From contig NC_042997.1 of NCBI RefSeq assembly GCF_006345805.1, positions 30,008,001 to 30,072,000 on the forward strand: a stretch of DNA of 64,000 nt. The letters run 5' to 3'. Made by a program: the position numbers and the translations under genes. Within the stretch, counting starts at the first letter, position 1; each line of letters begins with the position of its first letter. Of the stretch, positions 3,236 through 12,112 are shown in pieces. The notes beneath the pieces are model-generated. The model was not told where the DNA came from. It did not search any database and was given only the letters and a program-made list of their open reading frames with translations. The stretch comes from Octopus sinensis (Eukaryota).

Positions 3236-3488
3236 GATATATAATTGATAAAGAGGACAACAAGCGTTAAGTCAAGGCAAACATTTCAAGTCATATACAT
3301 TATTATTATCAGAAAAAGTTCAAAGTCTTACAGCTGTTTCTGGGATATCCCACAGTATGGGATATTCCGTTCTCGAAATCCCAGAAACAGCTGTAAGACT
3401 GAACTTTTTTCCATTAATGATAATGTATATGTCTAGAGATGTTTGTCTTGCCTAAACGTTTGTTGTCCTCTTTAACAATTGTATATAT
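3236..3488. repeat. ~110-bp-arm imperfect inverted repeat of PLE/HHR 3' ends
   Basis: aaagaggacaacaa..aagtcttacagctgtttctgggat versus atcccagaaacagctgtaagact..ttgttgtcctcttt; each arm has cccaGAAAC-agct-GTA. Confidence 0.75.
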
Positions 3489-3796
3489 CAGTGTGTGTGT
3501 AATTCCCTTACGGGACTGTCACGTCATGTTGACAGTATACAACCACTCTATCGCTCCACCACCGCTCATGTCTCTTTGAGACATTTAGAAATTCAATATT
3601 TCTAATTACGGTGACCAGTGAATAGATTTCACTGTAAATATATATATTTGCGAAGGCTAGACAGGCATCTCAACTAGCAGGTCTCACGGAAGTGTTTGTG
3701 TCGGCTTTTCGGATTTGTGGTTGTGAGTTGGATTTTGCTGATTATTGTTGTTGAAAACTGTTGCGACGTGTTGAATTGTTGAATTCTTTGTTGGGT

Positions 3797-5126
3797 ATGC
3801 AAGCCCAAACTTATGCGGGAGCAGCAGGCAAAAGCCTGGCTGCGAACGAATACAGTTAAAAGAAATAATTATCGAAAAGGAAAATCTGAGGAAATACAAC
3901 GACAGCTTCAAGAAGGAAGGAGGCTGTCTGAGGGTTACACCACCTGAAGACGAAGTGAAAAAAGCGGAGAAAAAAACCATAACATACAGAAAATGAAATG
4001 TGGTCTCAAAAAGAATAGAAGTAGCAGAAGTAGAAGAGATTGAAAAATTTCTACAAGAAATAAAAAGAAGAACTACCTTCTACAATAGAGGTAGGAAATA
4101 CGCTACGGTAAACGTTCGCTCTGAAAATGAAGATGAAGCGAAAAGGAACGCGACGACAGTATTGAGATCGGAAAAATGGGTTTTACTCCTTAGTTATTGT
4201 GGAAAAAGAGCAGTGAGGATACGAATAAGCAAAATCCCACCGGAACTTGATACCGAAAGAATAGTAACTACAATAATCTGCAACTGCAAGGAGAACGTGG
4301 ACATACTTAGGGTGCAAAAGTCGAATGAAATAAACTGGTGGGGTTATGCGGTGGAAGCCTTAGTCCACATAACCATGCCAGATTTGTATAACATACCGGA
4401 TGAGTTGGTATTCCCCGACGAGACACGACTGTGAGTCGTGGTGGAGGGGAGACCTCCGGTGTGTTATAAATGTAAGAGAAGAGGGCACATGAAGGATGTG
4501 TGTCCTGAAGGAGAAATACAAGGAAGGAAGATGACACTGGAGGAGGCAATAAGAGATTTGACAGAGGACTTAGGAGATAATATGGAAAGTGACGACGAGT
4601 TAGTGAAGGAGAAAGGAGAGGAAAGAAAAGAAGAAAAAGAGGATAGAAAGTGAACACGAGTGGAATCACCACCCAAAGACCAAAAATAACTAAAAAGAAG
4701 TATGCGGGCGAGACAGAGGATCGAACGCACGAAGGGAGAGATACGGCAACTAAAGTGAGTGAAGGTTCAAGTTGGGAGAAAGCGATAAAATGGTCAACAA
4801 GAGTGGAAGAATGTCTGAAAACGTGCAAAGAAGGAGGAAGACCCAAAGGAAAGAATCTCAGATCTGTAATATTGTACACAAAAGATAAAGAAATTGAGAA
4901 AAAATTAGCAGTAACGAAAAATCTAACGAGAGTGAAATTGAACCCGAGGATTGTCGATGACAAAACAAAGGCCGCAATAGTGGAAAGAGAGACGGTGAAT
5001 AGATTAAGAAATTTATTTTCAAAGACAGCTGTGTCCAAAGCGCATTACGTTCGATATGACAGTTTGCCCGGAGTTATAGAGCAAGATGAATTACTCGTTT
5101 ACATTACGGACGAACACCCCAGATAG
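3797..5126 (+). pseudogene. Disrupted Gag/LINE-ORF1-like (Tx1/ZCCHC3-like) protein with CX2CX4HX4C knuckle, roughly 440 aa reconstructed
   Basis: Starts MQAQTYAGAA; RRM-like VRIRISKIPPEL..IPDEL..VVVEGRPPVCYKCKRRGHMKDVCP; acidic/basic tail; in-frame TGA near 3994 and 4432; frameshifts near 3840 and 4650. Confidence 0.75.
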
Positions 5127-5316
5127 TATAACTGTAATATAAATGAAACTGCGAGCTTTGGGGGGCTCGTAAACCATTTCATTTAATTCATTGTTAATAA
5201 TTCATTTCATTTCATATCATCCTCTTTATTTTTATTATATGTACCCCATGTCCTGTATTGTATTGTTATGTCCCCTCTTCTGTCAGGCCATTGTGCCTAT
5301 AATAAAGAGAAAGGTC

Positions 5317-5374
5317 TCACTATCCTGGACTGATGACGGGTAAGACCCAGAAACATGCATGTCTTCAGATGTGA
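5317..5374 (+). ncRNA. Type I hammerhead ribozyme
   Basis: ctgga-CUGAUGA(5330-36)-c-gggt aag accc-a-GAAAC(5350-54)-atgcat-GUC(5361-63)-ttcag; stem I ctgga/ttcag extended by tcac/gtga; palindromic stem III. Confidence 0.8.
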
Positions 5375-5501
5375 ATCCTAACTGGTGGAGGTGCTTGCCT
5401 CCCCTTCGCAAATATAAGGACACAGGAAATGTGTCAAAGGGCTAAACAGCGGTGGTGTAATTCCCTTACGGGACTGTCACGTTATGTTGACAGTATACAA
5501 C

Positions 5502-5568
<67 letters not shown>

Positions 5569-10904: not shown

Positions 10905-12112
10905 TCTAATATTTCGGGTCCGAGCGTTGCAATGCAATGGTAAAGGAACCACAATTATGACACTATCACAATTTTTAGATATGACCACTTCTGTTTCGAA
11001 TTACAGCCTATAGTCTAGGTACAAATAGTTCACTAGCGGCACGCACAGCTGTTCTTGGGGGATCGAAACCCATTCCTGACGCGGTTTTGCCTTCAGAACA
11101 TAGCAAAACACAAGGAGTGCTCGAGACTCTCATCTTCAAAGTAGACCAAACAGAAAAATCCAACGGATTGAGAATGGGGTTTCTTGAGGGGCCGTACATC
11201 CTTGCCTTCTTGAGGGCCATAAATACTGAATGCTTTTTCTGAACCCAGTGTTGTGTCTGTTTGGAACTGTGATATGGTGCCGAGTGCTGTTGGAAGCTCC
11301 AAAGTGCACCTTGGAAGTACTCATTTGCCCAAGGAAGCAGTTCAGCTTCCAGAATGTCGCTAATGTGCCGCTGAGTCTTTATTTTAACACTTGAGGACAC
11401 AAAAACGAGGGTACCCTTCCAGTGTCTGTCACGGCAGCCCAAACTGTAACTGACTGTGGACTTTAACGTCGATTTACGAGTCTACCCTCGACAGGAACCA
11501 GATACACTCTAAAGTCGGTCATTCTAGTGGTTTATTGTCTGTTCGATGTCAAATTTCTTTTCATTAGTGAACACCAAGTTGGTCAGTGTACCTTCAGCAA
11601 TCTGACGCGGGATAAGACGACATCTCTCCATTCTCATAGCCTTATAAACTAGCGTGAACTCAGGACGACGGATCATCTTCTGAAATAGGGGGCTTGAGAC
11701 TCTCCTTCAGAACTCGATACAGCTATGCTCGGCTTATTTTTACTGTGGCAGCCAGTTTTCCGACGGAATGACTAGAATTTCGACGTATCTTTTCGTTGGT
11801 ACTTTTGTTAAGTTGAGGGTTCGTACACTTCCTTTTCGGCCACGTCCAGGTCGATCAGCGGTGGAACCTGTCTCTTGAAATTTCTTGACCATTGTCCAGA
11901 CCGTTGTTCAATTCATCTAAGCTTTTTTGCTATAGCTGTATTACTTTCACCTCCTCTGTGGTGGGTTTGTATTTCGGTCTCTAGCCATTGTCTAAGTTAT
12001 AAATCTGAATTTATTTAATCTGAAACAAAAGGAGACACATTAAGCTTTTATAACAAATGATAGTTATTAAAGCTCGAATCTTCGGTTGCCATAATTTCCC
12101 GAACATCCTCTA
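10905..12112 (-). mobile_element. Degenerate IS630-Tc1-mariner transposon, DD37D/maT-like
   Basis: Frameshifted: TVWTMVKKFQETGSTADRPGRGRKRSVRT, LVFTNEKKF, SVTVWAAV, LVFV..ILEAELLPWA..FQQHSAPYH, P.LNPLDFSVWS.L. Confidence 0.85.

Follow-up and report, generated by a model that had tools for sequence, protein, structure and literature searches.

A predicted hammerhead retrozyme of Octopus sinensis and the ORF1-only LINE-like element inserted in it

The window analyzed here is a stretch of 64,000 nucleotides of Octopus sinensis DNA, numbered from its first letter, and the locus of interest occupies positions 3497–5505. A first-pass annotation had taken the paired sequence at both ends of this locus as the non-coding end of one element of ~2 kb (1.96 kb), a reading that did not survive comparison with other copies in the genome. 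Judged from their sequence, the paired arcs are the two halves of one non-coding hammerhead repeat of ~350 nt, a predicted self-cutting RNA (retrozyme), and the middle of the locus is an ORF1-only LINE-like element that is separate from the retrozyme and is bounded by a target-site duplication. The locus is composed of the following features:

3497–3547, + strand: terminal redundancy of 51 nt, identical to 5455–5505 except for one base, by which the copy overruns one unit
3548–3687, + strand: opening part of the family A retrozyme unit, contiguous with 5321–5505 in empty copies
3679–3687, + strand: left target-site duplication, 9 bp
3688–5311, + strand: ORF1-only LINE-like element of 1,624 bp that lacks a reverse transcriptase; at empty sites the joint skips 1,633 nt
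3797–5126, + strand: broken ORF1-like frame (stops, frameshifts); natural open copies elsewhere encode 434–460 aa
4462–4503, + strand: CCHC zinc knuckle (PF00098, 21.1 bits, above cut-off)
5301–5306, + strand: 3'-terminal poly(A) signal of the ORF1-only element
5312–5320, + strand: right target-site duplication, 9 bp
5324–5369, + strand: type I hammerhead motif, with core 5330–5336 and 5350–5353, a short palindromic helix III and a predicted cut after 5363
5506–5560, no strand: (TA)n microsatellite at the copy's 3' end, frequent at fixed ends

Elsewhere in the window, a 250-bp imperfect palindrome of MITE-like shape (3237–3486) ends 10 bp before the retrozyme copy and belongs to a separate repeat family with 1,928 first-look candidates. 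A fragment of a Tc1/mariner-type transposase (PF01498, E 6e-10) lies on the minus strand at 1167–1562, and a minus-strand ORF at 11008–11442 appears DDE-like by eye and has no Pfam match.

The extent of the retrozyme unit, 3548–3687 plus 5321–5505, is set by two joints that are contiguous in other loci: at empty loci, 5505 continues into 3548 and 3687 continues into 5321, with no ORF between. Among the loci fetched, the end-to-start junction is contiguous DNA in 55 distinct stretches. The unit measures 325 nt in the window copy and about 352 nt in other copies, the difference being a 27-nt hairpin that is complete in 19 of 22 aligned family copies and that is deleted from the window copy after 5439. 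Empty copies contain no ORF, that is, the unit is non-coding, and their GC content of 0.43–0.45 is at the limit of the retrozyme range (under about 45%). A genome search with 5300–5505 returned 2,226 first-look candidates of family A, of which the best 40 were scored; the related families A3 and B have 2,393 and 3,735 first-look candidates, respectively, and other related families are known here as flanks only. Tandem units are spaced, from hammerhead to hammerhead, by 354 nt at two loci (L015 and L049) and by 349 nt at another (L117). The window copy has one hammerhead and is 1.16 units long, so that the 51-nt repeat at both ends, which the annotation had described and which is real, can be explained as overshoot. 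The empty-site joint, with its 1,633-nt skip, is also present in contigs from sequencing runs presumed to be RNA, which cannot show strand, level or circles. Among the runs that contain the sequence, none is recorded as RNA.

The motif at 5324–5369, which we take to be a type I hammerhead on the strength of its known core, is present in the unit, and cleavage is predicted. In natural copies both sides change at three of the six pairs of helix I and at two of the three pairs of helix II, on the plus strand. Rfam left the hammerhead unscored and returned only matches below threshold, to microsatellite-driven miRNA. Around this motif, the retrozyme halves pair as follows:

3557–3566, + strand: 3' arm of the junction helix, pairs with 5448–5457
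3568–3634, + strand: three hairpins (3568–3584, 3585–3605 and 3616–3634)
3643–3687, + strand: arm of the long imperfect stem, pairs with 5371–5416
5371–5416, + strand: arm of the long imperfect stem, pairs with 3643–3687
5419–5435, + strand: hairpin, followed in most copies by the 27-nt hairpin that is deleted here after 5439
5448–5457, + strand: 5' arm of the junction helix, pairs with 3557–3566
5463–5505, + strand: two small hairpins (5463–5472 and 5473–5494) and an unpaired stretch; the main fixed 3' end of copies is at 5505

The pairings that the first-pass annotation had listed hold throughout: 5448–5457 and 3557–3566, and likewise 5403–5416 and 3643–3656, are exact reverse complements, and all of its hairpins are present in the sequence. 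When 5371–5505 is followed by 3548–3687 (275 nt), the folding energy is -110.7 kcal/mol as compared with -64.4 +/- 4.7 kcal/mol for shuffles (z -9.9); none of 100 dinucleotide shuffles reaches this value, and the minimum free energy structure contains the helices of the annotation, including the imperfect extension of 45–46 nt. The circular window monomer has a z of -8.0, a natural uninterrupted copy of 353 nt (L015) has the same architecture (z -8.2), and family B has the same layout (monomer z -4.2). The proposal of a ~275-nt nested multibranch domain in a tandem or circular unit is thus borne out as to nesting and branching; its size is not, because the family domain is about 300 nt and the window copy is without the 27-nt hairpin, and the single domain as drawn had omitted the hammerhead, although this closes the other side of the long stem.

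Covariation across copies, which the annotation had proposed as a test, is present. In the long stem and hammerhead, 15 of 50 pairs have changed on both sides, a result reached by none of 500 shuffles; given that the copies are related, this control overstates significance and is not a probability. Within 36 natural empty copies of families A and A3, 94.5% of the cells of these helices are paired, as against at most 46% in controls with slid partners, and the double changes are mostly single events between subfamilies. (The 52 long-stem stretches divide into 35 of A or A3 and L045, which entered the count, 16 of B, which were aligned separately, and L141, which was omitted.) RNAalifold missed the junction helix in an alignment of 22 copies with ragged ends, and the counts given here come instead from natural junction-spanning copies, with 5 of 55 stretches left out as near-duplicates or deleted. 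The junction helix is 89.5% paired in A and A3 (49 copies), with three single-copy double changes and with the first pair broken in 23 of the 49. In family B it is paired in 174 of 184 cells (23 copies) and closes the same two small hairpins, and both of its sides differ from those of A at three of six aligned pairs, the alignment being anchored by eye. The junction helix is kept in family A and rebuilt from other letters in family B. Of 49 copies, 20 show a compensatory change in the hairpin at 3568–3584.

The same symmetry could in principle be maintained in the DNA, as a cruciform, as single-stranded cDNA or for protein sites, instead of in a structured RNA, and three observations would suit this explanation: the reverse complement of the 275-nt arc folds nearly as well (z -7.2; z -9.2 for the reverse strand of the circle), the hairpin at 3616–3634 and the arm from 3643 overlap promoter-like DNA motifs, and the G-U strand bias that the annotation had noted proves weak, variants found in at least three copies being five G-U versus four A-C in the long stem and two versus six in the junction part. 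We nonetheless consider it very improbable given that the commonest state is G-U in 5 of the 50 pairs and A-C in none, that helices I and II of the hammerhead covary on the plus strand, and that the long-stem arms of empty copies lie 50 nt apart with the ribozyme between them.

For the element in the middle of the locus, a protein search of the genome returned 36,698 candidates, of which 108 were scored. A protein search with a natural ORF1 found a single homologue, in Octopus bimaculoides, and the Atlas gave leads to CCHC and ZCCHC3-like clusters at 0.91–0.92. An AlphaFold model of the ORF1 has a mean pLDDT of 47.7 and no fold match at E 0.001, and profile comparison with a fish LINE protein aligns the zinc knuckle alone, with a probability of 8.5%. 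Of the best 30 loci, window copy included, 27 have sequence of an A, A2 or B retrozyme after the 3' end of the ORF1-only element and three have other sequence there; the 27 comprise 20 loci with a hammerhead core (14 by pattern, six by eye) and seven with target sequence only. The duplications consist of 9–20 bp of the hit family's own sequence and start 14–32 nt before the core. Other ORF1-only subfamilies form arrays at other targets; L161–L167, for example, are head-to-tail arrays of open elements of another subfamily, with a period of about 1.7 kb and no hammerhead nearby.

Given that most copies are empty, a "coding retrozyme" was rejected as the nature of the family. The window copy by itself could still have been made from one 1.96-kb composite RNA of a donor locus, the passenger having arisen by insertion and the pair then moving together. 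Composite RNA does get copied, since L011 and L015 each have a two-armed insertion whose arms both start in the ORF1-only 3' end, with no retrozyme upstream; both helices close across the insert, and flank family is clustered on the ORF1-only tree overall (18 changes versus 31.9 when shuffled). The closest relatives of the window element nevertheless sit in other families, its clade (support 100/98) including nine B, six A2, three A and four other flanks; the duplications vary in length and letters by locus; an empty copy, L003, is 98.7–98.9% identical in both retrozyme halves; and no near-identical composite occurs among the best 40 matches of either part, the ORF part being at most 94% identical. 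One comparison counts against later insertion, under which it would be unexpected: the window has 47–48 private differences in 1,601 columns of the ORF part versus 3 in 375 columns of the retrozyme part (p 0.011), a gap found at one of 10 composite loci tested, namely the window, and not at the other nine. On the evidence as a whole we judge it improbable that the window copy descends from a composite RNA. The private changes at 3700–5300 are skewed, with 14 A-to-G versus 3 T-to-C, on a strand that is A-rich.

In the preferred reading the ORF1-only element inserted separately into a retrozyme copy, and a full-length LINE with the same target is its likely partner. Its ORF2 (1,134 aa) has the arrangement APE-RT-zf-RVT, and APE, RT, C-terminal zinc motif and a CCHC ORF1 are all present. 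All named homologues from the protein searches are octopod sequences, with no named Tx1 reference among them. The ORF1 of the full LINE and the ORF1-only protein are 26–31% identical (E 1e-26 to 1e-33), whereas blastn of the ORF1-only element against eight full-LINE loci found no DNA similarity, a short tail around the poly(A) signal being shared. Given this lack of DNA similarity, we infer the partnership from the target, the ORF1 and the short tail; the ORF1-only element is not a simple internal deletion of the full LINE, and a closer LINE partner may exist.

The insertion sites of the two elements coincide. Of 30 full-LINE 3' ends, 23 precede a hammerhead core, variants included (14 by pattern, nine by eye), three are stacked on another copy at the retrozyme target, one is at U2 base 1 and three are elsewhere. 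The LINE and the relatives of the window's ORF1-only element land 14–39 nt before the hammerhead core of several retrozyme families. With loci taken as the best matches to one query each, flanks of one repeat type are found at 26 of 30 LINE loci and 27 of 30 ORF1-only loci, which exceeds the criterion of >20% given in the accessible part of PMC4494074. The 3' flanks of L201–L222 contain further retrozyme families whose core begins TTGACGA or TTGATAA, not CTGATGA. The full LINE at U2 base 1 (L231, 1709–7100) opens at its 5' end with about 12 nt matching the retrozyme target of other copies, and an ORF1-only copy at an unrelated site (L232) has a like retrozyme-derived head. The insertion site of Keno lies inside U2. 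At L144 (90–1370, minus strand), the 5' end of an ORF1-only element and the last kilobase of the full LINE are joined in one frame at a retrozyme A3 target; a deletion derivative was rejected in favor of a chimera because full LINEs carry a different ORF1.

Upstream of the landing site, two motifs together resemble a promoter:

3614–3620, + strand: ACCAGTG, putative snRNA-type promoter element, one mismatch to the U2 motif ATCAGT
3635–3649, + strand: TATA-like run, putative promoter part, about 25–35 nt before the usual landing site and overlapping the long stem

All 19 U2 loci that keep their native upstream DNA carry ATCAGT at -57 to -61; one further locus, the twentieth, is the copy hit by the LINE. 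At the insertion sites, A[CT]CAGT, a 6-mer found after the fact and in homologous families, lies 54–67 nt before the duplication in 20 of 31 cases, with a spacing of 54–60 nt at 14 and of 63–67 nt at six (the subfamily of the window); the 11 sites without it include stacked copies. A TATA run is placed at about -28 to -33. This pattern suggests an internal snRNA-type promoter, with the LINE landing at its start site. We are cautious as to the polymerase, given that U6 loci have TATA at -30 and no ATCAGT. Copies of a variant U6 gene are arrayed in tandem at L261–L272 (G000:C1:141.92–141.95 Mb), with TATA at -30 and, near -80, an octamer-like ATGCAAAT.

Pairing across the junction had also been put forward as support for a circular or multimeric intermediate. 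By itself it does not provide such support: the linear locus 3497–5505 folds both helices in full (10 of 10 and 14 of 14 pairs), since the arms nest in linear order too. Such an intermediate is likely all the same, on the better evidence of copy anatomy. The 51 family A loci have 71 arms, of which 52 end either at window position 5505 or at about 3605; the first 30 loci were chosen by a query ending at 5505, which favors arms reaching 5505 and does not force a stop there. These fixed ends often run into (TA)n or (CT)n, and the 5' starts vary. An arm longer than one unit is found at 19 of the 51 loci and two opposed arms at 16. Family B (24 loci) has 10 loci over one unit and 12 two-armed loci, with ends at matching places of the fold. 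Fixed ends, partial tandems and opposed arms constitute the Penelope pattern, which needs a circular or multimeric template. No Penelope element sharing the unit was found in the 50 of 87 flanking ORFs (from 104 loci) that were scanned.

As to which template, uncut linear multimers from tandem arrays would have an identical fold. Tandem arrays exist, the pairings nest in linear order, and 5' starts at unit positions 325–335, near the putative start site, are among the commonest; yet an active hammerhead would cut the RNA before copying, and 41 of the 52 fixed-end arms of family A cross the predicted cut site, and circles dominate in the coral, mussel and axolotl retrozymes covered by the accessible text of PMC7229834. 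We regard linear multimers as possible, though somewhat unlikely, and posit circles. The inferred start site is passed by 29 of the 52 arms, and the 20 that reach back to the promoter-like motif would alone regain the promoter.

We consider it very likely that the locus is a retrozyme copy, propagated by reverse copying, with a separate ORF1-only LINE-like insert placed probably at a probable transcription start. The model below starts from what is observed, namely the fold and its covariation, tandem units of 349–354 nt, fixed 3' ends, target duplications and a shared landing site. A promoter inside the unit, composed of the U2-like motif and TATA, would start RNA about 25–32 nt before the hammerhead core. 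Read-through of tandem units followed by hammerhead cleavage would release monomers to be ligated to circles, whose long stem would present the ribozyme as a protruding terminal domain. Copying would fall to a reverse transcriptase of the Penelope type. With priming at (TA)n, it would begin at either of two fixed sites, chiefly the one in the unpaired stretch that the junction helix closes, and would proceed backwards round the unit; only copies running past the start site would regain the promoter, giving rise to terminal redundancy. The APE-RT LINE and its ORF1-only passengers would cleave the DNA at the transcription start and take advantage of the promoter.

We speculate further, and with considerable doubt, that the unit is read in three ways: as DNA, it would be an snRNA-type promoter; as a circle, it would present a priming site; and to the LINE, it would be one of a set of start sites, found as such and not by sequence. 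If this is true, overshooting by one turn would rebuild the promoter, the junction helix would present a fixed priming site to a Penelope-type reverse transcriptase, and a Tx1-like LINE and its passengers would find snRNA-type starts (those of several retrozyme families and U2) and may ride in retrozyme RNA.

Animal non-LTR retrozymes are described, in the accessible portions of Cervera and de la Pena (2020, PMC7229834), as tandem units of 150–450 bp with a type I hammerhead and no protein; a second source on them is Li, Clavereau and Pollet (2026, 10.64898/2026.07.22.740005). As far as these portions of the two texts extend, the RNAs have a stable self-paired fold that leaves the ribozyme free, Penelope-like elements are proposed as mobilizers, and octopus is absent. 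The arcs 3548–3687 and 5321–5505 are, by their predicted properties, a new member of this known class: the octopus unit has a type I hammerhead, a tandem length in the 150–450-bp range, no protein and a stable fold, with cleavage and circles predicted. What sets it apart from the class as published in those portions is a fold with covariation support, a pair of fixed 3' ends that go with this fold, and its use as a landing site by LINEs. A nested target-specific passenger is a new feature on this known retrozyme class. The copies resemble Penelope-like insertions, as described in the accessible part of Craig et al. (2021, PMC8557442), in 5' truncation, partial tandems, an inverted 5'-truncated copy and (TA)n targets, and the two ends of the octopus retrozyme, about 55 nt apart, may be set beside the "tail" of 30–40 bp in that text; unlike Penelope-like elements, the octopus unit contains no RT or GIY-YIG gene.

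The insert has parallels of a different kind. Among the target-specific LINEs of the Tx1 clade, Tx1L inserts in Tx1D, Tx1-Mar in Mariner-N4_AMi and Keno in U2, according to the accessible part of Kojima (2015, PMC4494074). Compared by features with what is described there, the octopus system likewise has an APE-RT LINE that prefers another repeat, passengers that share the target and head-to-tail stacks, but the target of the octopus LINE is a hammerhead retrozyme, and one copy lies at U2 base 1. HAL1, HeT-A and Ag-Sponge are ORF1-only LINE derivatives (Kojima 2018, PMC5786205, accessible part), and like them the octopus element has one ORF1-like protein, a LINE-type 3' end, a target duplication and no RT; unlike them, as described there, it is target-specific. 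In newt satellite 2, a hammerhead repeat, Pol II transcribes from an internal promoter of snRNA type (as cited in the accessible part of PMC2220036), whereas in the octopus unit, where the promoter is putative, the U2-like motif is accompanied by a TATA run. Literature searches listed no paper on octopus retrozymes or retrozyme-targeting LINEs; these families may be included in supplements or in Repbase.

The fold itself is as expected of a retrozyme, and what the locus contributes is less a new system than support and detail. Transcription and copying of animal retrozymes have been proposed, not demonstrated, and the octopus family offers testable coordinates for both, in the form of a covarying fold, a candidate promoter with its start site, and two fixed priming sites whose position in the fold is shared by two diverged families. 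Ribozyme repeats, perhaps recognized by their start sites, would represent a new kind of target for a LINE.
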